Assembly (NCBI GenBank): GCA_035606435.1
Contig: DATNFM010000054.1
Location: forward strand, 3,413 to 67,412
Direction of reading: 5' to 3'
Source: Streptosporangiaceae bacterium
Lineage (GTDB): Bacteria; Actinomycetota; Actinomycetes; Streptosporangiales; Streptosporangiaceae
DNA length: 64,000 nt
Shown: positions 7,363 through 61,091 of the stretch, one piece after another
Position numbering within the stretch: position 1 is the first letter of the stretch
How the letters are laid out: each line of letters begins with the position of its first letter
The notes under the pieces: model-generated
Told to the model about the DNA's origin: nothing
Database searches by the model: none
What the model saw: the letters and a program-made list of their open reading frames with translations, nothing else
Position numbers and translations under genes: made by a program

Positions 7363-7412
7363 CAACGGACCTGGCCGCTCGCCGAAGGGGCGCGAGCGCA
7401 GGCGAAGCCGGA

Positions 7413-7477
7413 GGCGCGGTGCCGTCTGGACTGACGAGCGCAGTTTGCGAGGAGGGAAGACGGCGCCTAAGAGCGCC
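7413..7477. repeat. Third copy of the left arm of the long structured repeat (GGCGCGGTGCCGYCTGGACTGACGAGCGCAGTTTGCGAGGAGGGAAGRCGGCGCCTAAG.GCGCC)
   Basis: Near-identical to 55333..55396 and to the reverse complement of 54545..54617. Sits just 3' of the LuxR gene stop (7533). Confidence 0.8.
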
Positions 7478-31244: not shown

Positions 31245-32810
31245 TCAGATCCAACTGTTAACCCACATTCGGCTCAGCCAGGCCCCGTAAGGAAGCACTC
31301 TGTCGGCAAGTACCGGATACAAGTAGATGAAGTTCGCCAGCACCAGGAGCAGGTAGCCACCCGATACCGAGGCCAGGACGATCCGGGACTGAAAGGTTTC
31401 GTAAAGCAGGCCAAGGACGAGGGCGGTGGCCATCACCAGGAACGGATCGAATACCACGGCGTAATAGAAGAACTCGGTACGGTGGTCGTGGTAGTAAAAC
31501 CAGATCCACGGCAGCCACCCGGCGGCGACCGCGGCCAGAACGGCGCCAACCTGCCAGTCCCGCCGCCAGATCCACCAGGCAACGCTGAAGAGCAGCGCGG
31601 CAGTGGCCATCCACCAGATCAGCGGGGTGCCGATGGCCAGTACTTCCTGCTCGGTCGAACGCGCCGTCCCGCCGCACAGGCGTCCGGCCGGAACGCAGTT
31701 GGCGTGGAACGAGATCGGCCGGGCGAGGATCGGCCAGCCGAGCGGATTCGTCTGGTAGGAGTGAGTGGTGCGCAGGCCCAGGCCGAAGCCGAGCATGGAT
31801 TTCTGATACTGCAGCCAGGCCAGGATCGTCCCGGCCGGATGACCGTCGTTGAAGGCGGCCCCGTTGCGGTCATAGCCGTAGCTGGTCGCGAACCAGCCGG
31901 TCCAGGACGCGACGTAGGCCGCCAACGGCGCAAGCCCAAACCAGACCGGCAGCCACGGGCCATCGCTGCGGGCCACTGCCCCGAGAGCCCGGAGGGACGA
32001 CCTCCCGGAACCCCCCGCGATGACAGGCCTGACCGATCCAGCCGCGCGCCGGGCGGCCCAATCCCAGGCCACCACCAGGATCGCGAGGACCGGAAGGTAC
32101 CATACACCATTCCATTTCGTCGCGCACGCGGCGCCCAGGCACACCCCGGCGAGCAGCAACGGCCAGCGGAGCCCCAGCCTCGCCGGCACATCCCGAGCCA
32201 GCGCATCGGCAAGCCGCGCTCTCGTCCGGTCGCGGTCCAAGACGATCAGGCCGAAGGCGGCCAGGATCCAGAACATGACGAAGATATCGAGGATCGCCGT
32301 CCGGCTGAGCACGAATTCGAGGCCATCAAGAGCCAGCAGCAGGCCGGCCACGCAGCCGAGCCAGGTGGACCCGGTCAGCCGTCGGGCGATCCGGGCCGTC
32401 ATCAAGATCGCCAGCGAGCCGACCAGCGCGGCCGCGAACCGCCAGCCGAATGGCGTCACGCCGAACAGCCATTCCCCGACCGCGATCATGATCTTGCCGA
32501 GCGGCGGGTGGGCCACGTACTCGGCCTGGGTACCGAGCAGAATGTGGGTGCCGCCGTGAGCTAGCACGGCATCGGAGTTGTGCACGTGGCTGATCTCAAC
32601 GCCGTGTTTCAAGATGCCGTAGGCATCGGGCACGTAGTAGGTCTCGTCGAAGACCACCCCGTGCGGCACGCTCAGCCGGTCGAACCGCAGGAAGCCACCG
32701 AACAATGTCACTAGCAGCGGACCGGCCCAGCCCTGCCAGTTGCGCGGCAAAGGCAAAACGAGCCGATCACGCAGATCAGGTTGTGCGGCAGCAGGAAGCG
32801 ATTCGATCAA
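31245..32810 (-). CDS. pmt: Dolichyl/polyprenyl-phosphate-mannose protein mannosyltransferase (GT39)
   Basis: VFDETYYVPDAYGILKHGVE signature loop; polytopic; 521 aa. Confidence 0.85.
   Translation of the reverse strand: MIESLPAAAQPDLRDRLVLPLPRNWQGWAGPLLVTLFGGFLRFDRLSVPHGVVFDETYYVPDAYGILKHGVEISHVHNSDAVLAHGGTHILLGTQAEYVAHPPLGKIMIAVGEWLFGVTPFGWRFAAALVGSLAILMTARIARRLTGSTWLGCVAGLLLALDGLEFVLSRTAILDIFVMFWILAAFGLIVLDRDRTRARLADALARDVPARLGLRWPLLLAGVCLGAACATKWNGVWYLPVLAILVVAWDWAARRAAGSVRPVIAGGSGRSSLRALGAVARSDGPWLPVWFGLAPLAAYVASWTGWFATSYGYDRNGAAFNDGHPAGTILAWLQYQKSMLGFGLGLRTTHSYQTNPLGWPILARPISFHANCVPAGRLCGGTARSTEQEVLAIGTPLIWWMATAALLFSVAWWIWRRDWQVGAVLAAVAAGWLPWIWFYYHDHRTEFFYYAVVFDPFLVMATALVLGLLYETFQSRIVLASVSGGYLLLVLANFIYLYPVLADRVLPYGAWLSRMWVNSWI
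31988..32017. repeat. Diverged copy of the G-run/C-run hairpin element inside pmt (CCCGGAGGGACGACCTCCCGGAACCCCCCG)
   Basis: Two substitutions relative to the 47247..47276 copy; translated in frame as GGSGRSSLR on the minus strand. Confidence 0.8.
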
Positions 32811-42394: not shown

Positions 42395-45289
42395 ATGACG
42401 GCCAACAGCGTCGAGTTCGGTGTTCTTGGACCAGTGCAGGCCCTGATCGTCGGCCGGTCGGCGGACTTAGGCGAGCGCAAACAGCGCCTGGTGCTGGCCA
42501 TGCTGGCGCTCGAGGTCAACAAGGTCATCCCGGTCAGCCGATTTGCCGACATCCTCTGGAGCGATTCACCGCCGAACAGCGCCCGCCGGATCATCCAGGC
42601 CCATGTCAGCAGGCTGCGGACGGCGCTGCACGAGGTCGGCGCGGCCGCCGACGGCACGGCGCTCGTCCGGCGCGGCTCTGGCTACCTGCTCGCCACCGAT
42701 CCGGTGAGCGTCGACGCGCACCGATTCCGCTTTTTAGTCGAAGACGCCGAACTTCGAACCGACGATCCTGGCAAGGTCAAGGTGCTGAGCGAGGCTCTGG
42801 CCTTGTGGCGCGGCCCGGCGCTCGCCGACGCGGCACCCGATGACCTGCGTCAGCAGCTGTGCGGCGGCCTCGAAGAGGCACGGCTCATGGCGGTGGAGAA
42901 CCTGCTGGAAACCAGGCTCCGGCTCGGTCATCACCTGCCGGTCCTCGACGAGCTGACCGATCTGGCCGCGCTGCATCCGTACCGGCCGAGGATCACGCGG
43001 TGCCTGATGCTGGCCTTGTACCGGGCCGGCCGGACGGCCGATGCCCTGCGCAGCTTCGAGGTCCTCCGCGACCGGCTGAGGCGAGAACTCGGGCTTGACC
43101 CGCCGGCCGAGCTGACCGAGCTGCACGTCGCCATTTTGCGGGCCGATCCCGGGCTGTCGCACGGCCAGGTGAACCTGGCCGATCCGGCCCCGGCTCAGCT
43201 CCCGGCCGATATCGCCGATTTCGTCGGCCGGGACACCGAACTGGCCGCGCTCGGCCGATTCACCGAAGCCCACCCGCTACACCCCCCGCCCGCCACCCAC
43301 ACCGCCCGGGCCAGCACCGTCATCATCACGGGCGGGGCCGGGGTCGGCAAGACCGCGCTCGCGGTGCACTGGGCTCACCTGGTAGCGGACGACTTTCCTG
43401 ACGGCCAGCTGTACGTCGACCTCCGGGGCTATTCAGGCACCGCCCCGGTCACGACGCTCGACGCACTGATCTCCTTGCTGCATGGCCTAGGCGTGCCGAT
43501 GGCACGGATTCCGGCCGATGAGAGGCAGGCGGCCGCACTGTACCGATCCGAGATGGCCGGCCGGCGAATGATCGTCGTGCTCGACAACGCCCGCAGCGAG
43601 CAGCCCGTCCGGCCGTTGCTGCCGGGCCGATCCAAGTCCGTGACGCTGGTGACCAGCCGGACCGGGCTGACCGGGCTGACCGCCCGGGAGGGCGCGGCCC
43701 GTATCTGCCTGGACCCGCTCAGCACCGACGAGGCGCTGGCTCTGCTGGCGGGCATGATCGGCGCGGTCCGGATCCGCCGCGAGACCGAGCCCGCCGCGGA
43801 ATTGGCCCGGCTGTGCGCCGGACTGCCGCTGGCGCTTCGCATCGCGGCGGCGAGGTTGCTGGCGCTTCCCCACACTCAGATCAAGGAGTACGTGAAGGAG
43901 ATCGCCGACGAGGACGCGTTCGCCTCGCTCCAGGTCGACGGTGACGATTCGGCTAGTGTCTGGACCGCGTTCGACCTTTCTTACCTGGCGCTTGACCCGT
44001 CGTCCAGGCGAGTGTTCCGGCTGCTCGGCGTGATCGGCAGCGGGAACCTGTCGGTGCACGCGATCGCGGCCATGAACGGGGCCACGGCCGCTCACGTCAG
44101 GCACGCGCTCAGCCGGCTGGCCGATGCCCACCTGGTCGAGCAGCATTCTGGCGCCCGGTTCGGCCCGCACGACCTGCTCCGGCGCTACGCGATGGTCAAG
44201 AGCAAGGACGAGGACACCACCCCGGATCGGCAGGCCGCCTTGCTGCGCCTGCTCCGCTGGTACCTGCACGGCGCGGACCAGGCGACCCGGCTCTTCAGTC
44301 CCTTCGCGCTGCGGCAGTTGCCGCCGGTCAGCCCCGCGGGCCAGAAGCTGGAGTTCGCGGGGATCGACGAGGCGCTGGCCTGGCTTGAAAGCGAGCAGGC
44401 CCACATGGTGGAGGCTCTCGTGCGGGCGGCCGACGAGGAGGATGACTCGATCTGCGATCTGGCCGTCCAGCTCGCCCGGCGGCTGCACTCGTTCCTGTTC
44501 AGGCGCGGCCACCTGGCCAGTGATGTCCAGGTCAGCCAGGCGGCCTTGAACGCCGCGGTACGCAGGCACGACCCGGGCGCCGAGGCCTGGGCCTGCATCT
44601 CACTCGGTGCGACCAACGCGCTGCTCGGGCGCGATGACCAGGCCCGGCCCTTGTTCCACCGGGCACTCAAGATCGCCAGGGCCACCACCGACACCTCCCT
44701 GCTGGCGAACTGCATCAGCAACGCGGCCGATGTCTGGTGGCGGGCCGGCGAGATTGACAAGGTCGAAGCGGCGCTGCGGGAAGAGATAGACCTGCGAGTC
44801 GATCTCGACGACGACTACGGCCTGGCGTTCTGCGAGCTCAACCTCGGCGAGCTGTATCGCGGTAAGGCGCTGTACGAGCAGTCTCGCAGCGCCTACGAAA
44901 GATCCATGCGCAAGCTGCGCGCCGTCGGCGACCGGTACGGCGAGTCGCTGGCCCTGCACGGCCTCGGCTGCCTGGAAATGCGGCAGGGACGGCTCGACCA
45001 GGCGGCCGACTCGCTTAACGGCGCGACGGTCATTCTCCGTGAGGTCAAGAACCGGTCCGCGCTCGGCTTCGTTCTGGTCGACCTCGGCCAGGCCTACCGG
45101 CGCCAAGGACAGAGCGGGCAGGCGATGAGCAGCCTTTACGAAGGACTGCGGCTGTGCCGGGAGCTTGGCATGCGCCGCCGGGAGGCCGAATGCCTGCAGG
45201 AGCTGAGCGTCACCCTTGATGAGATCATTCCTGAGCAGGCCGACAGTTACCGGCAGCAGTCGATGGCGATCCTGGGGGAACTGAAGTAA
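42395..45289 (+). CDS. SARP/AfsR-family regulator (OmpR-type wHTH + BTAD + NB-ARC + TPR)
   Basis: N-terminal FGVLGPVQA...RIIQAHVSRLRTAL; BTAD (ALALWRGPALAD); P-loop GGAGVGKTALA; C-terminal TPR-like repeats. Confidence 0.9.
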   Translation: MTANSVEFGVLGPVQALIVGRSADLGERKQRLVLAMLALEVNKVIPVSRFADILWSDSPPNSARRIIQAHVSRLRTALHEVGAAADGTALVRRGSGYLLATDPVSVDAHRFRFLVEDAELRTDDPGKVKVLSEALALWRGPALADAAPDDLRQQLCGGLEEARLMAVENLLETRLRLGHHLPVLDELTDLAALHPYRPRITRCLMLALYRAGRTADALRSFEVLRDRLRRELGLDPPAELTELHVAILRADPGLSHGQVNLADPAPAQLPADIADFVGRDTELAALGRFTEAHPLHPPPATHTARASTVIITGGAGVGKTALAVHWAHLVADDFPDGQLYVDLRGYSGTAPVTTLDALISLLHGLGVPMARIPADERQAAALYRSEMAGRRMIVVLDNARSEQPVRPLLPGRSKSVTLVTSRTGLTGLTAREGAARICLDPLSTDEALALLAGMIGAVRIRRETEPAAELARLCAGLPLALRIAAARLLALPHTQIKEYVKEIADEDAFASLQVDGDDSASVWTAFDLSYLALDPSSRRVFRLLGVIGSGNLSVHAIAAMNGATAAHVRHALSRLADAHLVEQHSGARFGPHDLLRRYAMVKSKDEDTTPDRQAALLRLLRWYLHGADQATRLFSPFALRQLPPVSPAGQKLEFAGIDEALAWLESEQAHMVEALVRAADEEDDSICDLAVQLARRLHSFLFRRGHLASDVQVSQAALNAAVRRHDPGAEAWACISLGATNALLGRDDQARPLFHRALKIARATTDTSLLANCISNAADVWWRAGEIDKVEAALREEIDLRVDLDDDYGLAFCELNLGELYRGKALYEQSRSAYERSMRKLRAVGDRYGESLALHGLGCLEMRQGRLDQAADSLNGATVILREVKNRSALGFVLVDLGQAYRRQGQSGQAMSSLYEGLRLCRELGMRRREAECLQELSVTLDEIIPEQADSYRQQSMAILGELK

Positions 45290-46589
45290 GCCGCCCGGCG
45301 ACATCGGCGACCGCCGCGACATCGGCGACCGCCGCGCCAGGCAGGTTGGCCGCTACCCAGCCCTCGCGGACGAGCGGCCTGGTCCGGGAACTGGCCAGAG
45401 CTCCGCTGGGCACATCGCTGGACAGCACAGTTCCGCCGGCGGTGTAGGCACCGTCGCCGACCGACATCGGGCCGATCATGATCGTGCCCGCCCCGATGAA
45501 GACGTGGTCGCCGATCTCGACCCTGTGCTTAGCCTGGCCGTCGAAGATGGCCGTGCCCGAGAGCCCCGCGATGTTGCAGCCCTTGCCGATGTCGGCGCTC
45601 ATCAGGCCGGCCACGTGCGGGATCTGGGTGTCGTCGCCGACGACCGAGTTGCTGACTTCGACGAACGACCCGGCCCTGGTCCTGGCGCCGAGCCGGGTGC
45701 CGGAGCGAAGCCAGGTGAAGGGCCCGATCCTGGCGTTGTCACCGATCGTCACGTCCTCGCAGACCGCGTACCTGACCACGCAATCGTCACCGGCCATCGT
45801 GTCGATCATCGTGGTGACCGGGCCGATGCTGGCGCCCGAGCCGATCACGGTACAGCCGGCCAGGTCGGTGTGCGGGCGGATCCGCGCTCCCCGGCCGATC
45901 TGGACGCTCGCATCGATTCTGGTCGTCGCCGGGTCCTCGATGACGACACCGCGACGCTGCCAGTCGACGGCGATGCGCTGGTACAGCGCCACCTCGGCCT
46001 GCTGTCGCTCGGCCAGGTCATCGACGCGCAGGGACTCGACCTGACCGGCGTCGATCGCGGTCACCCGCGCGCTGGGGTCACCCGCGCAGACCACGGCGGC
46101 GAGCGTGCACGCGGCCTGCCGCTGCGACCACCACCACTGCGGACCGCGCGAACGGATCACCGCTACGCCGAACTCACCGTCGTTCAGCGCCTCGATGGCC
46201 CGCCGGATGCTGGCCGGCTGCAGCAGCGGATTCAGGCACGACAGCGTCACCGTCAGCCCCGGCCACTGCGCGAGGCCGTCCCGGCCCGCCGAGATCGCCG
46301 GGCGCAGCCCGCGCCGGGCGCAGGCCCGGACGCTGACCGCCGCCGCTGCCCGTCCGCTGAAGCCGACCGCGTCGGGCCCGAGCTCGGCCACCGTGTCCAG
46401 CAGCCATTCCACCGCCGGCCGCCCGCACAGCGGAGCGCTCCAGCAGTCGCACGGCGGCGGGCAGATCCTGGCCGGCTCGTCGGTGGCCAGAACGACCGCG
46501 AGCCCCCCGCCTGGCCGGCCCGGGTGGTGGGCGGGGGGTGTAGCGGGTGGGACCCCCCGGAATCCCCCGTGGGCGCGGGCCTCAGGCAT
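45225..46589 (-). CDS. GlmU-like protein: intact hexapeptide-repeat acetyltransferase domain, degenerate N-terminal nucleotidyltransferase-like domain
   Basis: The C-terminal half is a classic LbH repeat (IGDNARIGPFTWLRSG...VGDDTQIPHV...IGDHVFIGAGT). The N-terminus lacks GxGTR. ATG 46589 overlaps the permease stop. Confidence 0.7.
   Translation of the reverse strand: MPEARAHGGFRGVPPATPPAHHPGRPGGGLAVVLATDEPARICPPPCDCWSAPLCGRPAVEWLLDTVAELGPDAVGFSGRAAAAVSVRACARRGLRPAISAGRDGLAQWPGLTVTLSCLNPLLQPASIRRAIEALNDGEFGVAVIRSRGPQWWWSQRQAACTLAAVVCAGDPSARVTAIDAGQVESLRVDDLAERQQAEVALYQRIAVDWQRRGVVIEDPATTRIDASVQIGRGARIRPHTDLAGCTVIGSGASIGPVTTMIDTMAGDDCVVRYAVCEDVTIGDNARIGPFTWLRSGTRLGARTRAGSFVEVSNSVVGDDTQIPHVAGLMSADIGKGCNIAGLSGTAIFDGQAKHRVEIGDHVFIGAGTIMIGPMSVGDGAYTAGGTVLSSDVPSGALASSRTRPLVREGWVAANLPGAAVADVAAVADVAGRLTSVPPGSPSTAAGNCRPAQE
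46526..46569. repeat. Variant-B G/C-run element (GGTGGGCGGGGGGTGTAGCGGGTGGGACCCCCCGGAATCCCCCG)
   Basis: Close match to 61018..61060; translated on the minus strand as the N-terminus of the GlmU-like ORF. Confidence 0.75.
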
Positions 46590-47682
46590 CGTCCCACCGG
46601 AACAACCGGATCGCGATGAGCGCGATCACCAGCGCGAACCCAAGCAGCACGCCCAGTTGCGGCAGCACCGTCACCGGTCCGTCGCCCCGGGCCAGGACAT
46701 CGAGCACGGCATCGTTGAGGTGGCGCAGCGGGAGCACCTGGGAGATCGACTGAACCCACGACGGCACATCGTTGATCGGAATGAACGCACCGGACAGGAA
46801 TGCCATCGGGATCACGATCAGGTTGGCCAGCGCGCTCGCGGCCTCGACAGACTTCGTCAGCGCCCCGGCCAGCAGCCCGATCGACAAGAACGCCAGAGTC
46901 CCGGCCAGCACCAGCGGAATCGCCATCCACCAGGCTCCGGAAAGCTTCAGGTGGAAGGCCAGCACGGCGACCACGACGAACAGCACCGTCTGGGCCAGCG
47001 CGATGCCCAGGCTGACCAGGATCCGCGCGCCGATGACGGACCGCACGCTGACCGGGCTGAGCGTCAGCCGGCGCATCAGCTTGCGCTGCCGCCAGACGAT
47101 CAGCGTCGAGGCGGCCGCGAACGTCGCCCCGGTCGCGATCGCCCAGCCGAGGATGCCGGGGGTCAGGTACTGGATCTCCTTGAGCGACTTGTCGTCCACC
47201 TGGCTCGTCGACAGCGCCACCCGGGGCGCTTGACCGGCAGTGCTGACCCGGGGGGACGACCCCCCGGAACCCCCCGCCGCGGCCAAGTTAGAGGCATCGA
47301 CCAGGTACTGGAACACGCTGCTTACCGCGCCGGCCGACGATGGCGACGCACCGGAGTCGTAGATGACGACGCCGGTGCCGCGCTGGACCACCGCCGCCGC
47401 CTCGTTGCCGTTGCGGACATCGGCCAGGGCCGCGTGCAGGTCATGGGACCTGGTGATCGCCAGGACCTGGTCCACCTTCGCCTTGCCGTGGGCCGGCAGG
47501 CCGTCATACACCGCGACCGGACCGACGAGCACCACGTTCGAGCGCGGGTTCTTGGCCCCGCCGAGCAGCCCGCCGAGCAGGAACAGGAAGATCAGCGGGA
47601 ACACGATCGTGAAGAACAGCGCCGCGCGATCACGCAGGTAGCCGCGCATCAGCGCCCCGGAGAGCGTCAGCAGGCTGGTCAC
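46582..47682 (-). CDS. ABC-2 type transporter permease
   Basis: 366 aa with a large extracytoplasmic loop and C-terminal TM bundle; start overlaps the ATPase stop by 4 nt. Confidence 0.8.
   Translation of the reverse strand: MTSLLTLSGALMRGYLRDRAALFFTIVFPLIFLFLLGGLLGGAKNPRSNVVLVGPVAVYDGLPAHGKAKVDQVLAITRSHDLHAALADVRNGNEAAAVVQRGTGVVIYDSGASPSSAGAVSSVFQYLVDASNLAAAGGSGGSSPRVSTAGQAPRVALSTSQVDDKSLKEIQYLTPGILGWAIATGATFAAASTLIVWRQRKLMRRLTLSPVSVRSVIGARILVSLGIALAQTVLFVVVAVLAFHLKLSGAWWMAIPLVLAGTLAFLSIGLLAGALTKSVEAASALANLIVIPMAFLSGAFIPINDVPSWVQSISQVLPLRHLNDAVLDVLARGDGPVTVLPQLGVLLGFALVIALIAIRLFRWDDA
47244..47276. repeat. G-run/C-run hairpin element TGACCCGGGGGGACGACCCCCCGGAACCCCCCG
   Basis: 33/33 identical to 54501..54533; in frame in the permease loop as GGSGGSSPR. 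Confidence 0.9.
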
Positions 47683-49616: not shown

Positions 49617-50417
49617 GTGAGCGGAGGACCCGTAAGGTTTGGCATTGTGCCTGCTGCCGGCGCCGGGACGCGGCTGTCACCCTACCGCGCGCCCAAGGAA
49701 CTCATTCAGGTCGGATACCGCTCGGCCGGCGGGCAGTTGCTGCCGAAGGCGGCCATCGAGCACGTCCTGACGGCGATGGCGACCGGCGGAGCCGACCGTG
49801 CTTTCGTGATCTTGTCCCCGGCTAAATGGGATCTGTTCCGCTATCTCGGGTCCGGTGAGCACCTCGGCCTGGATCTGGCCTATCTGTGCCAGGAGACGCC
49901 GCTCGGCATGCCGCACGCGATCGACCTCGCCACGCCGTTCCTGGCCGGGCGGACGGTCGGCCTGGGAATGCCGGACACGATCGTGGCCCCCGCTGACTGC
50001 TTCGCCCAGCTCTTCGACTTCCACGATGCCACCAGGGCCGATCTCAGCCTGGGCGTGTTCCCGACGGCCGAACCGCAGTCACTGGCGCCGGTCGTGATTG
50101 AGCCCGGCTCGCACCGGGTTCTCGCGATCCTGGACAAGCCACTGGACCCGCCGGCCGCCAACACCTGGGGCATCGTGGTCTGGTCGCCGGTCTTCACCGA
50201 GATGCTGCACGACTACGTCGCGGGCGCGCTCCGGCAGCCGGGCGGGGAGCTGCTGCTGAGCGAGGTGTTCGCGGACGCGGTCACCGCCGGGCTGCGCGTT
50301 CACGCGCTTTCCTTCGACTCCGGCGAGTTTCACGACATCGGCAAGCCGGCCAACCTGATGCGCGCCCGGGCCTGGCTCGACAACGCCGGTGACGTCCTGG
50401 CGGGACACCAGCTATGA
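49617..50417 (+). CDS. Sugar-1-phosphate nucleotidyltransferase
   Basis: GIVPAAGAGTRLSPYRAPKEL (GxGTR) motif; 266 aa. Confidence 0.85.
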   Translation: MSGGPVRFGIVPAAGAGTRLSPYRAPKELIQVGYRSAGGQLLPKAAIEHVLTAMATGGADRAFVILSPAKWDLFRYLGSGEHLGLDLAYLCQETPLGMPHAIDLATPFLAGRTVGLGMPDTIVAPADCFAQLFDFHDATRADLSLGVFPTAEPQSLAPVVIEPGSHRVLAILDKPLDPPAANTWGIVVWSPVFTEMLHDYVAGALRQPGGELLLSEVFADAVTAGLRVHALSFDSGEFHDIGKPANLMRARAWLDNAGDVLAGHQL

Positions 50418-51520
50418 CCAACCTGCTGCTCGTCCCGTTTCCGCCCGCCGGGCATACGAAGCCGATGGAGGCGCTGGCCGGTCAATTACGCGCCGACGGG
50501 CACGCGGTCACGATCTTCGCCGAGACCGCGACAACCCGCTGGGGCATGCGACGGCCGGTGACCCCGCGGATGCACGCGTCCTACGACGCGGCGGCGCTGT
50601 TCCGGCACATGTTCGCCGGGAACGTCGCCGACATGGCCCGCGACGTCGTCGACCTGGCCGGTGCGTGCGGGGCCGAGCTGATCGTGACCGATGTGCTAAT
50701 GCCGGGCGGCGGGCTCGGGGCCGAACTGGCCAGACTGCCCTGGGTGTCGCTGGCCTGCACGCCGATCCCTGAGCTCGACACCTACCGGTACTTCTTGCCT
50801 CCCGAGGCAGGCGCCAGTTATGAGCCCCGCTCGACGCGGCTGGAGCTGGGGCTGCCGGCCGACGATGACCGCAACCTGCTCGCCCGTACCTCGGACCTGC
50901 TTCACCTGATCCCGACCACGCCGCGGTTCGCCGGCTTCCCGCAACTGCCCCCCGAGGTCGCGCTGACCGGCCCCTTCAACGCGATCCCGACCGCCTCACC
51001 AGCAAACGACGGCCGTCCGACGGTCACGGTGACCACGAGCAGCAACCCGATGGGACAGTTCGCCCGGATCGAGGATCGCTACCTCAAGGCCGCAGTTAAG
51101 GCGTTGACGAGCCTGGACATGACCGCCCTCATGGATCACGACGCCCCTCACTCCAAGCTCTTCCGGCAAAGTGACGCGGTAATCACCCACGGAGGCTGGG
51201 GCACTGTGTCCCGCGCGCTGCTGCTTGGCTTGCCGCTCGTCCTAGTGCCATTCGGCGCCGACCAGCCCTACATCGCCGGTCGTTGCGCCGATTTGGGAGC
51301 CGGGATCGTACTGCCAGCGCAGACCGTGACCGATGCCGAGCTTCGTGACGCCATCGGCGCGGTCATAGAAGAACCCAGCTATCGCAAGGCGGCCGCCGAG
51401 CTAGCCGCCGAGTTGCGGGAGGCCGAGCCACTATCGGTGGCTAGCTCGATGATCACATCCGTCTCCGCGGTGCCGGCCAAGGGGGACGACCCCCTATCAA
51501 CCCCCGCTTCAAGAAGGTGA
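50414..51520 (+). CDS. GT1 (MGT/UDP-glycosyltransferase-type) glycosyltransferase
   Basis: C-terminal donor motif ITHGGWGTVSRALLLGLPLVLVPFGADQ; ATGA overlap with the upstream gene. Confidence 0.85.
   Translation: MTNLLLVPFPPAGHTKPMEALAGQLRADGHAVTIFAETATTRWGMRRPVTPRMHASYDAAALFRHMFAGNVADMARDVVDLAGACGAELIVTDVLMPGGGLGAELARLPWVSLACTPIPELDTYRYFLPPEAGASYEPRSTRLELGLPADDDRNLLARTSDLLHLIPTTPRFAGFPQLPPEVALTGPFNAIPTASPANDGRPTVTVTTSSNPMGQFARIEDRYLKAAVKALTSLDMTALMDHDAPHSKLFRQSDAVITHGGWGTVSRALLLGLPLVLVPFGADQPYIAGRCADLGAGIVLPAQTVTDAELRDAIGAVIEEPSYRKAAAELAAELREAEPLSVASSMITSVSAVPAKGDDPLSTPASRR
51481..51506. repeat. Short-form hairpin element GGGGGACGACCCCCTATCAACCCCCG
   Basis: G5-ACGA-C5 then a C5 run; encodes the GT1 C-terminal tail KGDDPLSTPA. 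Confidence 0.75.
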
Positions 51521-53253: not shown

Positions 53254-53281
53254 GGCCAGATCGCAGGAAGGGAGCACTCAG

Positions 53282-53599: not shown

Positions 53600-53608
53600 G
53601 GGCTGGTC

Positions 53609-54646
53609 GTGAAGGCGCTCAGCATCCACCTGACCGACGTATGCAATAGCAAGTGCACGTTCTGCATTGTCGACGCGCCGTACATGAAGCAGGACACGAT
53701 CATGCGACGACGGGTGTCGAGGTTTCTCGCCGAGCACGCGGGTCAGGGCTACGAGGCGGTCAGCCTGCATGGCGGTGAGGCCACGGTCCGGCCGGACTTC
53801 CTTGAGATCCTGGACGAGATCGCCGAACGGGGCTACCCGACCGTGTTCTTGATGACCAACGGCCGCAAGTTCGCCCGGATGAACTACGCCCAGACCGTGG
53901 TCGGCAAGGGAGTCAGCGAGTTCATCATTTCGCTGCACGGCGCCACGGCCGCGACCCAGGACGGGATCAGCCTCGCGCGCGGATCGTTCGACCAGGCGAT
54001 CCAGGGCATCAAGAACGTCAAGGCACTGGGCGCGACGGTGCGCACGAACTCCGTCGTCTGCAAGGACAACTACACCGAGCTGCCGGCCATCATCGACCTC
54101 TGCCTGGATCTCGGAGCCGACCAGGTGAGCATCTCGGCGCTGCATACCTCCGGCACGGCGTTGCGCAACTTCGACAAGGTCACGCCGCGGTACGAGGTGA
54201 TCCGGCCGTACGTGGTCGAGGCGACCGACCGGGCGGTTCGCCGGGGCACCCGGCCGTACCTGGAGGGCTTCCCTTACTGCGCGGTGCCGCCGGAGTACGA
54301 GGAGTACCTGGTCGACTGGGAGGAACACAAGTACAAGGTCCTGTACCGCAGCTTCGTCATGGACGACTACGGCGACCACATGGACGACTTCGCCCGGGTG
54401 AAGGACGAGCGCTGCGACTCGTGCTTCTTCAACGACGTGTGCGGCGGCGTCTACAAGGAGTACGCCGAGTTCATCGGCTGGGACGAGTTCAAGCCAGTGC
54501 TGACCCGGGGGGACGACCCCCCGGAACCCCCCGAAGGTCGGGACGCCTTAGGCGCCGCCTTCCCTCCTCGCTCTGGCGCTTCGCTTTGTCGCTCGTCAGT
54601 CCAGGCGGCACCGCGCCCCGACGGTCCGGTGGTGACTGTTCAATGA
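53609..54646 (+). CDS. Radical SAM enzyme with a C-terminal auxiliary-cluster (SPASM/twitch-like) Cys motif, paralog 1
   Basis: CNSKCTFC (Cx3Cx2C) at residues 12-19; FPYC and CDSCFFNDVCGG. The last ~45 residues are encoded by the repeat element and its flank. Confidence 0.85.
   Translation: MKALSIHLTDVCNSKCTFCIVDAPYMKQDTIMRRRVSRFLAEHAGQGYEAVSLHGGEATVRPDFLEILDEIAERGYPTVFLMTNGRKFARMNYAQTVVGKGVSEFIISLHGATAATQDGISLARGSFDQAIQGIKNVKALGATVRTNSVVCKDNYTELPAIIDLCLDLGADQVSISALHTSGTALRNFDKVTPRYEVIRPYVVEATDRAVRRGTRPYLEGFPYCAVPPEYEEYLVDWEEHKYKVLYRSFVMDDYGDHMDDFARVKDERCDSCFFNDVCGGVYKEYAEFIGWDEFKPVLTRGDDPPEPPEGRDALGAAFPPRSGASLCRSSVQAAPRPDGPVVTVQ
54501..54619. repeat. Long structured repeat, left copy: hairpin element plus GGCGCC-TAA-GGCGCC stem region
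   Basis: The reverse complement matches 55331..55434, apart from an internal ~12-nt longer, diverged segment. Confidence 0.85.
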
Positions 54647-55320
54647 TCCCGATTACCAAGGCCGACGACGACCTCTTCGGGACGGCCGTACTCGCGACTC
54701 GGCTGGGGCGGGCCAGGGCGCTGATCGAGCATCTGCGTAAGCGGTACCACGACGAATGGGATGACCCGATGGCTGGCGTGCCGTTCGCGCTGGCGATGTT
54801 CGCCCTGGTGCAATCGGGGCGAACAGAGATCTCGGCGGAGTTCAACTTCACCGACATCATCGAGACGTTCGGCGATCTGCTTTATGACGAGCCCAATCAC
54901 TGGCTCGCCCGGTACCTGCGAATCCACGCCCGGACGCTGCTGCCGACCGACGGCGACTACCAGAACTACATGATCGCCGAGCGAGTCAGGGCCGCCGAGG
55001 ACGTCCAGGAACTGATCGACCGGCAGAGCCGGGCCGCCTGGCAGCCCTGGTTCACCTGCACCTACATCACGGCGGCCAGGCTGGCCTGGCAGACGAACCC
55101 GGCCGACCTGGACGCGATCGCGAAACTGGTCACGACGGCCGCTGAGTTGCCGTGCGCGCCGGTCAGGTTCCCCTCGCTCGGCAGCGTCATGTGCAGCTCG
55201 TTCTTCTTGTACTACGACCAGCCTGAACTGCCGGAACGAGACACGGTCGGCGCCTTGACGGGGCTGGTCTTCCCCGATCACCTGATCGTGAAGCGCGACC
55301 GGGTGGAGCGGCTCGCATGA
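54643..55320 (+). CDS. Hypothetical protein, paralog of 60327..61079
   Basis: 225 aa. ATGA overlaps at both ends. N-terminus MIPITKADDDLFG versus MRLITPADDELYG, and EPNHWLARY versus EPDHWFARY. Confidence 0.7.
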   Translation: MIPITKADDDLFGTAVLATRLGRARALIEHLRKRYHDEWDDPMAGVPFALAMFALVQSGRTEISAEFNFTDIIETFGDLLYDEPNHWLARYLRIHARTLLPTDGDYQNYMIAERVRAAEDVQELIDRQSRAAWQPWFTCTYITAARLAWQTNPADLDAIAKLVTTAAELPCAPVRFPSLGSVMCSSFFLYYDQPELPERDTVGALTGLVFPDHLIVKRDRVERLA

Positions 55321-56747
55321 GTGCCCGGGAGGGGCGCGGTGCCGCCTGGACTGACGAGCGCAGTTTGCGAGGAGGGAAGGCGGCGCCTAAGGCGCCCCTC
55401 CCTTCGGGGGGTTCCGGGGGGTCGTCCCCCCGGGCCAGCACAGCTAAGACCGTTCTCTTCATCGTCACCAGCTTCTGGGCCTTTGGTGAGTTGGCGATCG
55501 CGCTTGAGTTCGCCGAGCGGATGACCGGCACCGGATTCCGGCCGCTGTTCCTAATTCCGCCCACGCACCGGGCGCAGGTCGCCGCGACCGGGTTTGAATA
55601 CCAGGTCATGATCCCGGGAGCCGGAAAGATCAACCGGATTCAGCTCGCGGACATCGGCCATGTGCACCAGCCCGCGCTGGTCGTGCTCGCCGACTTCCTG
55701 AACTACGACTTCTGCGAGCGTCACTACGGGCTGCGCCGCGGCGATCTCGCCGTGTTCGGCTGCCCGATCGGTACCTTCGACGACTTCTCGTGGGGCCGGC
55801 CGGGCGCCTGGCTGGACACCTACGGATTCCAGGCGAAGGTCGAGGGCGAGATCACGCTCGACGGGCTGTCGTTCCGGTTGCGACCGTGTCCCCTCAATGA
55901 CCCGATAGCAGAGCACAATCCGCTCGATGAAATCGGTGAAGCCCAGATCTACCCGTACCCGATGCTCGAGAACGTCACCGACGTTCCCGACGACCATCGG
56001 GCCACCGTCCGGAGCGAACTCGGCCTGGCTAAGGACCGGCCGGTGGTGCTGGTGACCGGCGCGACGTGGCAGCGGACACACGAGGCGTATCCCAGGGTCA
56101 CGGCGTTCGTGAATGCCTGCAACTCGATGCTGGAACGGCTGCTGGCGAACCTGCTTCCGCACGCGGACGTGCTGGCCGTCGGGCCGCAACTGGTATTCGG
56201 TGACCAGGTGCCGGCTGGATTCCACCCGCTCGGATCGGTTCCGCCGGAGCGGTTCCAGCGGCTGATCCAGGCCGTCGACCTGCACATCTCGAACAACATC
56301 ATCTCGGTGAGCCTGCACCGGCTGGCGCTGCGCGGGATCCCGTCGGTCGTGATGATCAACTCCCTGCACAAGCGGTCCGGGCGACTCCGCTGGGAAATGC
56401 CCTCGGGGGGCTCCGGGGGGCCGTCCCCCCTGGCCAGCTCAGCGGCCCCAGGGCTGTCTGGGTTCGCCCAGGGAGTCATCGATGACCTCGACTACCTGTA
56501 TCCATACCGGATGTTCCCGGTCGGGTGGTACCACTTCCTGGACTCGTTGCTGGCCGGCAATCCGTTCAGCGACGTGATCACGCAGGTCGAGACGTTCGAC
56601 GAGGAGGCGGCGCTGGCCGCGATCCTCCCGTTGCTTGCCGCTGGTCCGGAGCGCGACCGGCTGGCAACTGCCCGCGAGCAATACCTCGAGGCGCTGCGCA
56701 AGCTGCCCGAGGTCGGTTCGATCCTGAATGAGGTGGCGGCGCTATGA
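55317..56747 (+). CDS. Divergent GT-B-like protein, paralog A (repeat-encoded N-terminal extension)
   Basis: Paralogous to 56744..58024 and 61092..62351. The first ~40 codons are the repeat element. A second element copy is in frame at 56401. Confidence 0.7.
   Translation: MSAREGRGAAWTDERSLRGGKAAPKAPLPSGGSGGSSPRASTAKTVLFIVTSFWAFGELAIALEFAERMTGTGFRPLFLIPPTHRAQVAATGFEYQVMIPGAGKINRIQLADIGHVHQPALVVLADFLNYDFCERHYGLRRGDLAVFGCPIGTFDDFSWGRPGAWLDTYGFQAKVEGEITLDGLSFRLRPCPLNDPIAEHNPLDEIGEAQIYPYPMLENVTDVPDDHRATVRSELGLAKDRPVVLVTGATWQRTHEAYPRVTAFVNACNSMLERLLANLLPHADVLAVGPQLVFGDQVPAGFHPLGSVPPERFQRLIQAVDLHISNNIISVSLHRLALRGIPSVVMINSLHKRSGRLRWEMPSGGSGGPSPLASSAAPGLSGFAQGVIDDLDYLYPYRMFPVGWYHFLDSLLAGNPFSDVITQVETFDEEAALAAILPLLAAGPERDRLATAREQYLEALRKLPEVGSILNEVAAL
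55331..55434. repeat. Long structured repeat, right copy (inverted relative to 54501..54619)
   Basis: GGGGCGCGGTGCCGCCTGGACTGACGAGCGCAGTTTGCGAGGAGGGAAGGCGGCGCCTAAGGCGCCCCTCCCTTCGGGGGGTTCCGGGGGGTCGTCCCCCCGGG. Confidence 0.9.
56401..56433. repeat. Hairpin element, reverse orientation variant (CCTCGGGGGGCTCCGGGGGGCCGTCCCCCCTGG)
   Basis: In frame as PSGGSGGPSPLA in GT-B-like paralog A. Confidence 0.8.
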
Positions 56748-58024
56748 AACTCCTGGTGCTAGCTCCAAGCCGGCGTTCGCGCGGGGATGCGATCATCGCC
56801 GCCGACCTGGCTCGATCGCTGCCGAGGTCGCGGTTTCAGGTCGCGTTCGCGGCGGCGCCTGAAGTCCTGTCCCAACTGCACGACCTGGGAATGCCGACGC
56901 TGCCGCTGACCGGCGCCACCCCGGCCGACAACCTAGCGATCCTGGATCAGATCGTCGCCGGCTTCAAGCCGGACTGCCTGGTCGCCGCCGACGCGTTCGA
57001 GCTGGAGCACACCACGAAGTGGTCGGGCCTGGCGATGGGCATGCTGCGCGAGCGCTACGGCCGGCCGGTCGCGAGCCTGGACCGGCTGGGCTGGCAGGCG
57101 GCCGGCTACAAGGCCGACATCTACGGCGGCGGCGCTGGCCAACTCAGTGAGCTGACCTTCCCGCCGCTGCTGGATGACTGCGACGTGCTGATCAGGCCGT
57201 GCCCGCCGCACCGGGCCGAGCCGGGTCCGGCTGGCGTTGTGGTGGCGCCGCTCGGGCTGTCCGGGCTGCGCGATGGAGGGCGAACGTCGGAGTCCGCCCG
57301 GGCGGACCATGCCTCTGGCAAGGAGGCGGAGACCACTCTGCCGCTGCTAGGGGGACGACCCCCTAGGACCCCCGACCAACCCGTAGTGTTTCTTTCCAAC
57401 TCAGCGTGGGAGTACCGCAACCGGACTCGGTCTCTGGCCGTGGCTGAGCTGATCGATGCGTTGCCGCGATTGATCCACAGTCATCTCGCCGCGCTGGGCC
57501 GGCGGCTGCGGGTGGTGCACGTCGGGGCGCGGCAGTGGCGGTTCCCGCTCGCCGACCAGATCGACTACCGGCACTTCAGCAAGCTGCCATACCAGATGTT
57601 CCACGAGAAGCTGGCGGCGGCGGACCTGTTCGTGACGACGAACGTGCTGTCGGTCACGCTCGCGCAAGCGGTGCTGTCCGGCGTCCCGGCGCTCGTCCTG
57701 GAGAACCACCAGACGCTCGGGGCATCCGAGTTGCCCGGCTGGGTTGGCGCGGCGGCCCCGCTGCTGCGTTCCGCGTATCCGTTCCGGGTCGCGCCGCTGG
57801 GCTGGCACGACTTCCTGGAGCCACTGCTGGCCGGGAACCCGTACGCCGACTGTTTCGCGAGCGCCGGGATCCTGGATCGGCAGGCGGTGCTCAGTGCGGT
57901 GAATGGGCTGCTGGACGACGAACCGGGTCGATCGCAGCTTAAGGAGCGTCAGCAGGGTTTCCGCGACGCGCTGGCCGGGCTCCCTCCGGTCGGCGAGGCC
58001 CTGGCGGCGGCGGTGCCTCGATGA
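56744..58024 (+). CDS. Divergent GT-B-like protein, paralog B
   Basis: MKLLVLAPS...GDAIIAADLARSLP N-terminus; C-terminal LFVTTNVLSVTLAQAVLSGVPALVL in place of the GT1 HGG..T donor motif. Confidence 0.7.
   Translation: MKLLVLAPSRRSRGDAIIAADLARSLPRSRFQVAFAAAPEVLSQLHDLGMPTLPLTGATPADNLAILDQIVAGFKPDCLVAADAFELEHTTKWSGLAMGMLRERYGRPVASLDRLGWQAAGYKADIYGGGAGQLSELTFPPLLDDCDVLIRPCPPHRAEPGPAGVVVAPLGLSGLRDGGRTSESARADHASGKEAETTLPLLGGRPPRTPDQPVVFLSNSAWEYRNRTRSLAVAELIDALPRLIHSHLAALGRRLRVVHVGARQWRFPLADQIDYRHFSKLPYQMFHEKLAAADLFVTTNVLSVTLAQAVLSGVPALVLENHQTLGASELPGWVGAAAPLLRSAYPFRVAPLGWHDFLEPLLAGNPYADCFASAGILDRQAVLSAVNGLLDDEPGRSQLKERQQGFRDALAGLPPVGEALAAAVPR
57350..57374. repeat. Short-form hairpin element GGGGGACGACCCCCTAGGACCCCCG (extended stem CTAGGGGG-ACGA-CCCCCTAG)
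   Basis: In frame as LGGRPPRTP in the interdomain region of paralog B. Confidence 0.8.
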
Positions 58025-59367: not shown

Positions 59368-60323
59368 AGGCCCTGAGCGTCCATCTGACCGACATCTGCA
59401 ATAGCAAATGTTCCTTCTGCATCGTCGACTCGCCGCATATCAAGGAGGACTCGATCTCCCGTAAGCGGGTCTCCCGGTTCCTGCGGGAGAACGCGGACAA
59501 GGGTTACGAGGCCGTCAACATCCACGGCGGCGAAGCCACGATCCGCCGCGACTTCCTCGAGATCCTGGACGAGATCGGCGAGCTGGGCTACCCCACCGTG
59601 TATCTGCAGACCAATGGCCGCAAGCTCTCCCACATGAAATACGCCCGCACCGTCGTGGACAAGGGCGTCAGCTTGTTCATCGTGTCGATGCACGGCGCGA
59701 CCGGCCTGACCCAGGACCGGATCAGCAAGTCGCTCGGTTCGTTCGAGCAGGCGGTCAAGGGCATCAAGAACGTCAGCGAGCTGGGCGCGAATATCAGGAC
59801 CAACACGGTGGCGTGCAAGGACAACTTCACCGAACTGCCGGAGATCGCCGATCTGTGCGTGGATCTCGGGGCCGATCACGTGAACATCTCCGCGCTGCAT
59901 ACGGCGGGGACCGCGTTCCGCAACTTCTGGGAGGTGACGCCTCGGTACGACGAGATCCAGCCGTACGTGTTCGAGGCCGTGGACCGGGTTGCCCGCCGGG
60001 AGCGGGCGATCACCTTGGAAGGCTTCCCCTACTGCGCGATCCCGGGCTACGAGAAGTACATGATCGACTGGTCAGAGAACCAGTTCAAGATGCTGTACCG
60101 GGCGTTCGTGTTCGAGGACTACGAGAACTACATGGACTCGAACTCGCGGGTCAAGGACGCTCGGTGCTCGGGGTGCGCCTTTGACGAGGTGTGCGGCGGG
60201 GTCTATAAGGAGTACGCCGAGATGATCGGCTGGGACGAATTCCAGCCCGTCCCCGCGGGAGATTCCGAGGGCTCGTCCCCACGGGCTGGCACAGCTCCGA
60301 CCCCGACTACCTTGACGGCGTAA
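59364..60323 (+). CDS. Radical SAM enzyme with a C-terminal auxiliary-cluster Cys motif, paralog 2
   Basis: CNSKCSFC; FPYC; CSGCAFDEVCGG. 43 of the first 60 residues are identical to paralog 1 by eye. Confidence 0.85.
   Translation: MKALSVHLTDICNSKCSFCIVDSPHIKEDSISRKRVSRFLRENADKGYEAVNIHGGEATIRRDFLEILDEIGELGYPTVYLQTNGRKLSHMKYARTVVDKGVSLFIVSMHGATGLTQDRISKSLGSFEQAVKGIKNVSELGANIRTNTVACKDNFTELPEIADLCVDLGADHVNISALHTAGTAFRNFWEVTPRYDEIQPYVFEAVDRVARRERAITLEGFPYCAIPGYEKYMIDWSENQFKMLYRAFVFEDYENYMDSNSRVKDARCSGCAFDEVCGGVYKEYAEMIGWDEFQPVPAGDSEGSSPRAGTAPTPTTLTA
60254..60285. repeat. Decayed reverse-orientation hairpin element (CGCGGGAGATTCCGAGGGCTCGTCCCCACGGG)
   Basis: Aligns with CGGGGGGTTCCGGGGGGTCGTCCCCCCGGG; encodes GDSEGSSPRAG in the C-terminal tail of rSAM paralog 2. 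Confidence 0.55.
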
Positions 60324-60326
60324 GTC

Positions 60327-61079
60327 GTGCGGCTTATTACGCCGGCCGATGATGAGCTGTACGGACTGGCCAGCGCGGCGGGGAAGCTAGGCCGGGCCGA
60401 TCGGCTGCTGGCCATGCTCGAACGGGAACACCTGGCGCGGCCGGGCGATGGCGAAGCGGCCGGGCGGTACGCGCTGGCGATGATGGCGGTGCTGCCTAGC
60501 GTCAACTTCGAACTGGCCGCGCACGCACCGTTCACCGCCGCGATCGACGCGTGGGGGCGGGTCCTCGCCATCGAGCCTGATCACTGGTTCGCCCGGTACG
60601 GCCGGGCCCGGCTGCAGACGTTGACCCCGGGCGGCTACGGCCTCGATTCCGCTGGTGCGGCCGATGAGCTCGCGTCGGCGCGGGCGGATCTGGATTTCCT
60701 GATCGACCTGCAGTCCGGGCTCGGGTACCAGCCGTACTTCGTCAGCACCCATGCGCTGGCGACGGTGCTGGACGGGCTTTGCGTGGAGTCGGCCCGGGTC
60801 GGCCGGCCTTCGCTGGCCGATGAGCTGGCGGCGTGCCCTCGGGTCAATGTGCGCCTGCCCGCTCTGGGCGCGGTGCTGTGCGAGCCGCTGGTCACCTTGT
60901 ACGCGGGGTCGGCCGAACGGGAACGGCACGCGATCGGCGAGGTTGCCGCCGCGTTGTACGGGGACCAGGCCGCCGTCGCCGCGCTGCGTCGCTCCCTGCT
61001 TCAGTGCTGGCCCGGGAGGTGGGCGGGGGGTGAAGCGGGCGGGACCCCCCTGATCCCCCCGCAGCCGGCGCGGCGGTGA
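60327..61079 (+). CDS. Hypothetical protein, paralog of 54643..55320
   Basis: 250 aa, GTG start 3 nt after the rSAM stop; the C-terminal tail is encoded by the variant-B element. Confidence 0.7.
   Translation: MRLITPADDELYGLASAAGKLGRADRLLAMLEREHLARPGDGEAAGRYALAMMAVLPSVNFELAAHAPFTAAIDAWGRVLAIEPDHWFARYGRARLQTLTPGGYGLDSAGAADELASARADLDFLIDLQSGLGYQPYFVSTHALATVLDGLCVESARVGRPSLADELAACPRVNVRLPALGAVLCEPLVTLYAGSAERERHAIGEVAAALYGDQAAVAALRRSLLQCWPGRWAGGEAGGTPLIPPQPARR
61018..61060. repeat. Variant-B G/C-run element (GGTGGGCGGGGGGTGAAGCGGGCGGGACCCCCCTGATCCCCCC)
   Basis: Matches 46526..46569; encodes WAGGEAGGTPLIPP. Confidence 0.75.
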
Positions 61080-61091
61080 GGCGATGAGGCG

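Follow-up and report, generated by a model that had tools for sequence, protein, structure and literature searches.

The window analysed here, a stretch of 64,000 nucleotides from a Streptosporangiaceae bacterium, carries a RiPP cluster in which a gene named H1 is bracketed by two inverted repeat arms. The genes and arms are arranged as follows.

53609..54646, plus strand: rSAM-1, radical SAM protein of 345 aa
54497..54619, plus strand: left arm, a composite repeat of 123 nt lying in the rSAM-1 frame
54643..55320, plus strand: H1, 225 aa, without Pfam family, conserved as part of the cluster and not cargo
55317..56747, plus strand: GT-A, DUF6365 protein of 476 aa
55331..55441, minus strand: right arm, 111 nt, the same composite as the left arm in opposite orientation, lying in the GT-A frame

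The TGA of rSAM-1 overlaps the ATG of H1 (ATGA, 54643-54646), and the TGA of H1 overlaps the ATG of GT-A at 55317, where the ancestral GT-A ATG has been retained. Both stop/start overlaps fall outside the arms. A preliminary description of this DNA had reported the ATGA coupling of rSAM-1 and H1 and the position of the right arm 11 nt past the H1 stop, and the coordinates bear out both. The presence of inverted repeats around H1 was likewise confirmed by repeat search, global alignment and shuffled controls; the pair is real, and only its outer limits, first placed at 54501 and 55434, had to be moved to 54497 on the left and 55441 on the right.

Global alignment of the left arm with the reverse complement of the right arm gave 104 identities, 5 mismatches and 16 gap columns. 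The one large difference is an indel in an internal apical segment, and the left arm is longer by 12 nt. The repeat search paired 54497-54571 with 55367-55441 (75 nt, 95% complementary) and 54590-54619 with 55331-55360 (30 nt, 100% complementary), the number of matches expected for either arm half in shuffled controls being 0. Part of the 95% identity between module A and linker of the two arms could reflect gene conversion. Read from its start, the left arm consists of a module A in sense orientation (~54497-54533), a linker hairpin (GGCGCC-TTA-GGCGCC) and a module B with a long apical variant, while the right arm consists of a module B with a short apical variant, the linker and a module A in antisense. 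The GC content of the arms is 74-77%. Two independent metagenome contigs, L001 (99.86% identity) and L002 (99.57%), have arms of identical sequence, arranged alike, so that an assembly artefact can be set aside.

Module A is a 39-nt unit with the consensus cagtgctaGCCC-GGGGGG-ACGA-CCCCCC-GGAr-CCCCCCG, the core of which is a GGGGGG-ACGA-CCCCCC hairpin. Module B forms a longer imperfect hairpin and, together with the linker, covers 78-87 nt. Folding of the right-arm strand gave z = -3.15, and the composite is stop-free in 4/6 frames. Each module is found again at other positions of the window.

7411..7471, minus strand (left-arm convention): module B with short apical variant, between ORFs and with a different partner module
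31979..32017, plus strand: module A, in frame in the gene 31245..32810 (minus strand), peptide ...GGSGRSSLRA...
47237..47280, plus strand: solo module A, in frame in the ABC-2 permease gene 46582..47682 (minus strand)
51468..51506, plus strand: degenerate module A coding the C terminus of a UDPGT-type glycosyltransferase (gene 50414..51520)
56400..56443, minus strand: solo module A in GT-A, in frame, adding 13 codons (residues 362-376, a low-confidence loop)
60258..60293, minus strand: decayed module A in the rSAM-2 C-terminal tail (...GDSEGSSPRAG...)
61006..61061, plus strand: related G6/C6 hairpin repeat coding the H2 C-terminal tail, with partners at 46514-46569 and 43269-43311

The module B copy at 7411..7471 is 97% identical to the right arm over 59 nt and stands in direct orientation with it. 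All copies inside coding sequence of this cluster add multiples of 3 nt. Where opposed or direct copies lie 0.7-1 kb from each other, they could serve as substrates for inversion or deletion inside the biosynthetic cluster. A multiple-of-three length was considered as an intrinsic property of the repeat; the periods of 39, 87, 90 and 69 nt fit, the 115-nt spacing in locus L050 does not, and the idea was retained as suggestive only.

Outside the window, module A was found at more than 116 loci in Streptosporangiales genomes, where it occurs alone, in tandem arrays (periods of 39, 87 and 90 nt) or joined to other modules. The A+B composite was found again in another MAG (L014). Placement relative to genes was estimated for 113 copies by a GC3 heuristic, which put 26 of them in frame within coding sequence and a further 46 at gene ends within an open frame. 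Both orientations are represented inside coding sequence (15 sense, 13 antisense), and Pfam confirmed in-frame copies inside UvrD, GcvP, NadE, an FbiC-like protein, NuoG and the ABC-2 permease. Neither the repeat or its peptides nor repeats of this kind in Streptosporangiaceae were found described in the open-access literature searched.

The order rSAM-1, H1, GT-A is kept in ~20 related loci, and comparison of these orthologous loci, proposed earlier as a check, revealed the ancestral stop and start codons in clusters that are free of arms. Both arms are missing in relatives of 97.7% identity, and the left arm is absent from all related loci except the near-identical L001 and L002. The site at the right junction is empty in L126-131 and L132, holds module A alone in L125 and L136-138, and a B+A variant in L134/135; more distant relatives carry the repeat at the right junction only, again as one of these two forms, which are common to genomes only 85-93% identical. 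Alignments of the window with its orthologs break exactly at each copy, and the site-by-site matrix of presence and absence across relatives gave additions of +120, +111, +39, +39 and +78 nt. At the left junction, the ancestral tail of rSAM-1 lost 24 nt and received 144 nt in their place. The permease copy at 47237 represents a net gain of 39 nt relative to L126, L132, L136 and L137, the degenerate copy at 51468..51506 is common to L126 and absent from L133, L136 and L137, and the G6/C6 repeat of the H2 tail is absent from L132 and L006. The decayed copy in the rSAM-2 tail, which is an older, eroded insertion, is also present in L127, and with another decayed copy in the rSAM-1 tail of L003 it illustrates erosion into ordinary coding sequence. 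Such gains and losses between genomes of 97.7% identity make up a natural allele series, from fresh to decayed, for the origin of protein tails and loops.

The occurrence of copies with the same boundaries at the right junction in several lineages could correspond to one old insertion followed by repeated losses, to allelic exchange or to site-specific re-insertion. The left event was a replacement and not a clean insertion: the 8 codons that follow the arm have no homology to the tail seen in the ancestral form, and simple cut-and-paste does not account for this.

The conserved core of rSAM-1 ends at ...WDEFKPV (residue 297), and its tail is made of repeat-encoded residues plus 8 codons, the orthologs being 299-308 aa long. 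The arms encode protein termini as had been suggested, and the lengths first put at ~45 and ~40 codons are now corrected to residues 297-337 of rSAM-1 (41 codons, followed by 8 more) and residues 5-42 of GT-A. The in-frame gains amount to 40 codons for the left arm and 37 for the right arm, both ATGA overlaps being intact. Going by the reading frames, the arms are presumably translated, and the predicted peptides of rSAM-1 and GT-A include ...RGDDPPEPPEGR... and ...GGSGGSSPR.... A search with the arm peptides among 5.8 billion proteins returned one weak match and missed the window's own proteins, low-complexity peptides being poorly handled by it. Both paralogs of GT-A begin directly at the first beta strand, as had been noticed. 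In the AlphaFold2 model of GT-A (mean pLDDT 87), the repeat-coded segments sit in positions predicted to be disordered: residues 1-43 have a pLDDT of ~33-61 and no secondary structure, strand beta-1 starts at residue 44, and the insertion at 362-376 is a loop with a pLDDT of 57-71. The odd termini of rSAM-1 and GT-A derive from repeats, and anyone interpreting this RiPP cluster or expressing it in another host should not take them for functional domains or leader-binding segments.

The arms belong to a dispersed repeat family, their insertions are polymorphic among relatives, and reading frames are preserved. The copies in the window and in other genomes, as well as the orthologs without arms, thereby support the earlier proposal that a dispersed repeat invaded two gene junctions while leaving frames and ATGA coupling unbroken; the opposing case, in which the arms would be conserved coding termini without other copies, is the reverse of what was found. 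Very probably, the two arms arrived independently, each as a copy of a short, GC-rich, non-autonomous mosaic repeat that abounds in Streptosporangiales genomes, and their inverted pairing is a by-product and not a device. The right junction would have been colonised first and the left arm would be a recent gain, because copies at the right junction are shared at 85-93% identity and the left arm is already absent at 97.7%. Two insertions in opposite orientation would then suffice to generate the inverted arrangement around H1. Mostly stop-free frames and additions in multiples of 3 indicate that copies landing at protein termini or in surface loops may be tolerated and yield, on translation, unstructured stretches in which Gly, Ser, Pro, Asp and Glu are frequent. 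Since both events preserved the ATGA overlaps, the operon still works, and the insertions are probably neutral. As neither a transposase nor a RAYT nor any other mobilising function was identified, we infer mobility only from the polymorphism between relatives.

A broader joint reading would see here an undescribed and currently active modular family adapted to coding sequence and reshaping the ends and loops of proteins, those of essential genes included, with a core hairpin derived from, or mimicking, the guanidine-II aptamer hairpin, and with the opposed pair acting as dsRNA that tunes H1 expression. Adaptation to coding sequence is suggested by the 39 and 78-87 nt units, the mostly stop-free frames and the predicted disorder of the peptides. 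Taken as a whole, this combination seems unlikely.

That the pair is functional by itself, either as a switch inverting H1 or through an mRNA duplex of ~110 bp looping out H1 and leading to an RNase III cut or to a block of H1 translation, is in our view very unlikely. The length of the arms would suffice for homologous recombination (75 nt at 95%, 30 nt at 100%). The minimum-energy and centroid folds of 54480-55460 are also both predicted to hold the long-range duplex, with z = -14 versus shuffles. However, the operon runs without arms in the relatives of 97.7% identity and with a single arm in others, which makes the pair dispensable as well as recent. All three assemblies are collinear, with one and the same orientation, and the JGI metagenome contigs gave 0 inverted junctions versus 1 normal junction, a weak test. 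There is no recombinase gene among the cluster genes, and inversion would leave H1 in antisense orientation and rSAM-1 fused to nonsense. As for the duplex, the arms lie in translated sequence ~800 nt apart, where pairing should face competition from ribosomes and from local hairpins.

Copying of one arm from the other by local inverted duplication or by template switching, or homogenisation of the arms by gene conversion, would account for their identity of 95% over module A and linker and for the 30 identical nt of module B, but appears highly improbable as the origin of the pair. The apical variants of module B differ, the right arm having that of the copy located at 7.4 kb (97% over 59 nt) and of the internal copy of L132, and the left arm having the long type that resembles L134. 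Furthermore, the flanks of the two arms are unrelated to each other, and the composite recurs as a unit elsewhere, in L014. The more specific possibility of a left arm copied from the right arm together with its flank was rejected on account of these unrelated flanks.

Separate acquisition also leaves little room for the view that H1 was mobilised by a unit with the arms as its ends, as in a composite transposon or a MITE pair with cargo. The inverted repeats do bracket exactly one gene. Nevertheless, in ~20 loci where one or both arms are missing, Catellatospora included, H1 orthologs are flanked by rSAM-1 and GT-A just as here, and the paralogous set rSAM-2/H2/DUF6365 within the window has the same gene order. 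The arms are variants of different subfamilies and point to different acquisition times, and no target duplication was seen. Synteny, paralogous set and arm variants together refute the suggestion that the pair is a footprint of H1 mobilisation, which we regard as barely conceivable.

Equally hard to credit is a role of the hairpins as riboswitch elements of guanidine-II (mini-ykkC) type regulating the cluster. The hairpin of module A, CCGGGGGGACGACCCCCCGG, agrees with the P1 hairpin of the consensus, ACGR loop included, the left arm scored 25.3 bits (E = 0.011) against Rfam RF01068, and tandem arrays of module A in other genomes reached 34-37 bits, above the gathering score. Both arms nevertheless stay below the gathering score of 32 (25.3 bits on the left, 16 on the right), with one good hairpin each, and Rfam at gathering thresholds gave no match in the window. 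The mRNA carries the right arm in antisense, and copies lie within coding sequence in both orientations and in many unrelated genes. The mini-ykkC motif is defined by its location near the Shine-Dalgarno sequence of genes from a limited set (PMC1950547), and no such placement at guanidine-related genes was seen. The repeat shares the hairpin sequence and loop of this riboswitch and differs in genomic context, strand independence and intragenic location. The resemblance is most likely that of a look-alike able to cause false annotation, tandem module A arrays being those that could be called riboswitches because they pass the Rfam threshold. A hammerhead ribozyme was also considered for module B (CTGACGAG...GAA) and rejected, Rfam returning just a noise match of 14.7 bits in a different part of the arm.

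Intragenic ERIC/RU-1 and the 107-bp Correia elements resemble MITEs in having terminal inverted repeats and TA target duplications (Delihas 2007/2008, PMC2759123, PMC2229807). Neither feature was found here: as far as the aligned copies can be read, the two ends of the composite, CAGTGCTG... and ...CACCGCGCCCC, do not form inverted repeats with each other, and filled versus empty site 47237 corresponds to a clean 39-nt addition without duplication. The mobility mechanism would for these reasons be REP/BIME-like rather than MITE-like. Like the REP/BIME elements of enterobacteria, the repeat combines a short palindrome with other motifs in mosaics and tandem clusters (module A with several partners), without target duplications or terminal inverted repeats. 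In contrast, REP/BIME are extragenic by definition, whereas roughly a quarter of the module A copies are intragenic, and the arrays are head-to-tail here and alternating there.

The analogy first drawn with mycobacterial MIRUs turned out to be loose. Supply et al. are said to have described MIRUs in 1997 as tandem direct intergenic repeats with small ORFs of their own that overlap the stop and start codons of their neighbours. Common to both are an actinobacterial host, a location at junctions of operon genes and the maintenance of stop/start overlaps. The present repeats are, however, fused into the neighbouring proteins, within the rSAM-1 and GT-A frames, and also lie deep inside genes, which brings them closer to Rickettsia palindromic elements (RPEs).

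RPEs are AT-rich. PMC10969869 and PMC2229807 describe them, after Ogata et al. (2000), as dispersed repeats able to form hairpins and present in frame in unrelated conserved protein genes. The features that define such elements were recovered here, namely many dispersed hairpin copies and in-frame inserts (in rSAM-1, GT-A and the ABC-2 permease, and elsewhere in UvrD, GcvP, NadE and NuoG). Both are dispersed hairpin repeats of ~100-150 bp located between genes and in frame inside genes, with orthologs that lack the insert, and both spare the protein fold, the inserts of the GT-A model being a disordered N-terminus and a loop. The present family differs in its phylum, in the GC content of its arms, in being assembled from separable units (39 nt and 78-87 nt) that can also be arranged in tandem and in that no terminal inverted repeats were seen. 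The likeness would be one of behaviour and not of membership, homology being implausible given the GC content of the arms. The best-known case of selfish repeats colonising protein genes in frame is that of the AT-rich, obligate intracellular Rickettsia; here the phenomenon is also encountered in free-living actinomycetes of high GC content.

An inverted repeat bracketing gene H1 had been described from the sequence alone, and this structure proved to be real. A repeat search of the window returned two pairing segments, 54497-54571 with 55367-55441 (75 nt, 95% complementary) and 54590-54619 with 55331-55360 (30 nt, 100% complementary), and neither half found a chance match in 100 shuffles. In a global alignment, the left arm (123 nt) agrees with the reverse-complemented right arm (111 nt) at 104 positions; the differences are 5 mismatches and a single central indel block. 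The arms recur, identical and similarly arranged, in two independent metagenome contigs, L001 (99.86% identity) and L002 (99.57%), and the inverted repeat is therefore not an assembly artefact; the H1 protein has an exact match on record (HXS61971.1, Streptosporangiaceae MAG). The reading frames and the gap of 11 nt between the H1 stop and the right arm were as first reported:

53609..54646, radical SAM gene rSAM-1, reading through the left arm, its stop overlapping the H1 ATG (ATGA, 54643-54646)
54497..54619 (+), left arm
54643..55320, H1, ending in a second ATGA that provides the GT-A start at 55317
55317..56747, DUF6365 gene GT-A
55331..55441 (-), right arm

The arms are composites in which module A is joined through a small linker hairpin to module B. 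Module A is a 39-nt unit with the consensus cagtgctaGCCC-GGGGGG-ACGA-CCCCCC-GGAr-CCCCCCG, and module B is a longer hairpin, imperfectly paired and variable at its apex. Further copies were found in the window:

7411-7471, module B between ORFs, joined to a different partner module
31979-32017, module A within gene 31245..32810
47237-47280, module A within an ABC-2 permease gene
51468-51506, degenerate module A forming the C-terminus of a glycosyltransferase
56400-56443, module A within GT-A itself
60258-60293, decayed module A in the C-terminal tail of the paralogous radical SAM gene rSAM-2

A related G6/C6 hairpin repeat (GGGCGGGGGG-TGTAGCGGGTGGGA-CCCCCC-GGAA-CCCCCCG) occurs at 61006-61061, 46514-46569 and 43269-43311. 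The first copy encodes the C-terminal tail of H2, the paralog of H1, and is absent from the orthologous loci L132 and L006; the second occupies the opening codons of gene 45225..46589 and has counterparts only in L001 and L126. Within GT-A, module-A copies 55401-55444 and 56400-56443 are in direct orientation, 999 nt apart and 89% identical over 44 nt, a potential substrate for deletion of most of the gene.

Homologs of H1 led to about 20 syntenic RiPP loci, each with a Frankia_peptide precursor, three radical-SAM enzymes, DUF6365 proteins and P450s. Comparison with orthologous loci, as the preliminary description had proposed, gave the ancestral rSAM-1 end and GT-A start. In Catellatospora and the other distant relatives (74-77% nucleotide identity), rSAM-1 stops 2-10 residues past WDEF.P, GT-A begins M..(T)VLFIVTSFW at the same ATGA-overlapped ATG, and no inverted repeat flanks H1. 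Alignments between the window and its orthologs were interrupted exactly at every repeat copy. The core interpretation, that a repeat invaded two gene junctions while frames and coupling were kept, was right. The conserved RiPP-type cluster itself (window 50414-63580; orthologous loci L004, L006, L008, L132 and L136) contains a Frankia_peptide (PF14407) precursor, a B12-type radical SAM, P450s, sugar-activating/transfer genes and two smaller radical-SAM/H-protein/DUF6365 sets, and is common to Streptosporangiaceae MAGs and Micromonosporaceae (Catellatospora, Dactylosporangium).

State of the two arm sites in related loci (locus; identity; left junction; right junction)
L126-L131; 97.7% (L126); empty; empty
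L132; 88.5%; empty; empty
L125, L136-138; 85-93%; empty; module A alone, 40-43 nt between flank anchors, partly decayed
L134/135; ~86%; empty; B+A, long apical variant, 130 nt

At the empty left junction of L126-L131, the 90-nt flank anchors are 97-100% identical to the window, and rSAM-1 has 305 aa with the tail KPVTSPRVGAA*; at their empty right junction, GT-A starts MSRPHGKTVLF. The right arm has the short apical variant of the 7.4-kb copy and of L132, and the left arm the long variant, like L134. From this distribution and from the apical variants, the two arms are therefore two events, different in age and subfamily. The left insertion is very recent and is formally a replacement, 144 nt standing in place of 24 nt of the ancestral rSAM-1 tail. 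L132 carries a full B+A composite at an internal GT-A site instead (~11640-11760). The insert at this site (window 56390-56450) differs between three lineages: L132 has the composite, the window a lone module A, and L126/127 (L126 ~10480-10560) an insert of 67 nt unrelated to either; five other loci are empty there (22 nt). This surface loop of GT-A either is a hotspot for insertion or has gained and lost inserts repeatedly. In L003 (3895-3960), the rSAM-1 tail is formed by a decayed module A in antisense, opposite in orientation to the window's left arm. This copy and the decayed one in the window's rSAM-2 tail are older insertions on their way to becoming ordinary coding sequence by erosion, and the ends of these radical-SAM genes have therefore been hit repeatedly.

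Every net length change was a multiple of three: +120 nt at the left junction, +111 nt at the right junction versus L126, +78 nt for module B plus linker versus L125, and +39 nt each at the ABC-2 and internal GT-A sites. The composite lacks stop codons in four of its six frames. By a GC3-based heuristic, 113 module-A copies divided into 26 intragenic and in frame, 46 at gene ends within an open frame and 41 non-coding. The commonest frames among translated copies were ...RGDDPPEPP... (sense) and ...GGSGGSSPRAST... (antisense); the copies favour neither RNA strand (15 sense, 13 antisense). Pfam placed copies inside a UvrD helicase, the glycine-cleavage P protein and NuoG, and between domains in both NadE and an FbiC-like protein, and confirmed the one inside the window's ABC-2 permease. 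In an AlphaFold2 model of GT-A (48-sequence alignment, mean pLDDT 87, pTM 0.85), residues 1-43 have no secondary structure (pLDDT ~33-61), beta-1 follows at 44-49, and the internal insert (residues 362-376) is a low-confidence loop. In-frame residence is a habit of the repeat family. The arms belong to a known kind, small selfish repeats inserting in frame into genes. Rickettsia palindromic elements display the same in-frame intragenic pattern, which has been described less often for intragenic ERIC and Correia elements (PMC10969869, PMC2229807).

An exact-pattern scan covering one genome per species placed module A in more than 116 loci among the matches listed, where all named hosts were Streptosporangiales (Actinomadura, Allonocardiopsis, Trebonia and Streptosporangiaceae/other actinomycete MAGs). 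Copies there stand alone, form head-to-tail arrays (39-nt period) or alternate with further hairpin modules (87-90-nt periods); the A+linker+B composite recurs in another MAG (L014). This mosaic organisation is similar to that of enterobacterial BIMEs. A search of the open-access literature found no published description of the family, which is most interesting for its modular construction and for turning over between genomes that are nearly identical.

The pairing of the arms around H1 is best explained as incidental. Of the functional roles suggested for it, a long-range mRNA duplex is predicted by both minimum-energy and centroid folds (z = -14); however, both arms would lie in translated sequence, judging from the reading frames, and close relatives manage without them. 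Inversion of H1 has no support: the segment is collinear in three assemblies, the cluster holds no recombinase, and the inverted-junction pattern had no match in JGI metagenomes, where the normal form itself appears in one contig only, a tiny denominator. If it occurred, inversion would wreck the operon. Mobilisation of H1 is refuted, as every cluster has H1 in its usual position whether arms are present or not, and the paralogous set in the window is ordered alike.

The hairpin in module A exactly matches the P1 consensus hairpin of the guanidine-II (mini-ykkC) riboswitch. The single copy of the left arm (window 54505-54550) scored 25.3 bits, under the Rfam gathering score of 32, and tandem arrays elsewhere scored 34-37 bits (L045 45-100, L050 3616-3670, L078 6375-6430); such arrays would receive a riboswitch annotation, which represents an annotation trap. 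Context and strand independence are at odds with the motif definition, and module A is probably a repeat look-alike.

Other repeats were observed in the window. In each of the intergenic regions 12234-12390 and 1071-1224, opposed arrays of ~20-nt iteron-like repeats with a common GGTAAG core (for example ATCCGTGGTAAGACGGCGGG x2.6, 100% identity) flank a short spacer, AT-rich at 12270-12312; the arrays resemble binding sites of the operator or origin type. Many tandem repeats also lie in the first third of the window (306-421, 12557-12605, 13175-13250, 15989-16055, 22388-22848, 23078-23137). Their periods of 9, 15 or 18 nt are all divisible by three, and they may encode short peptide repeats.
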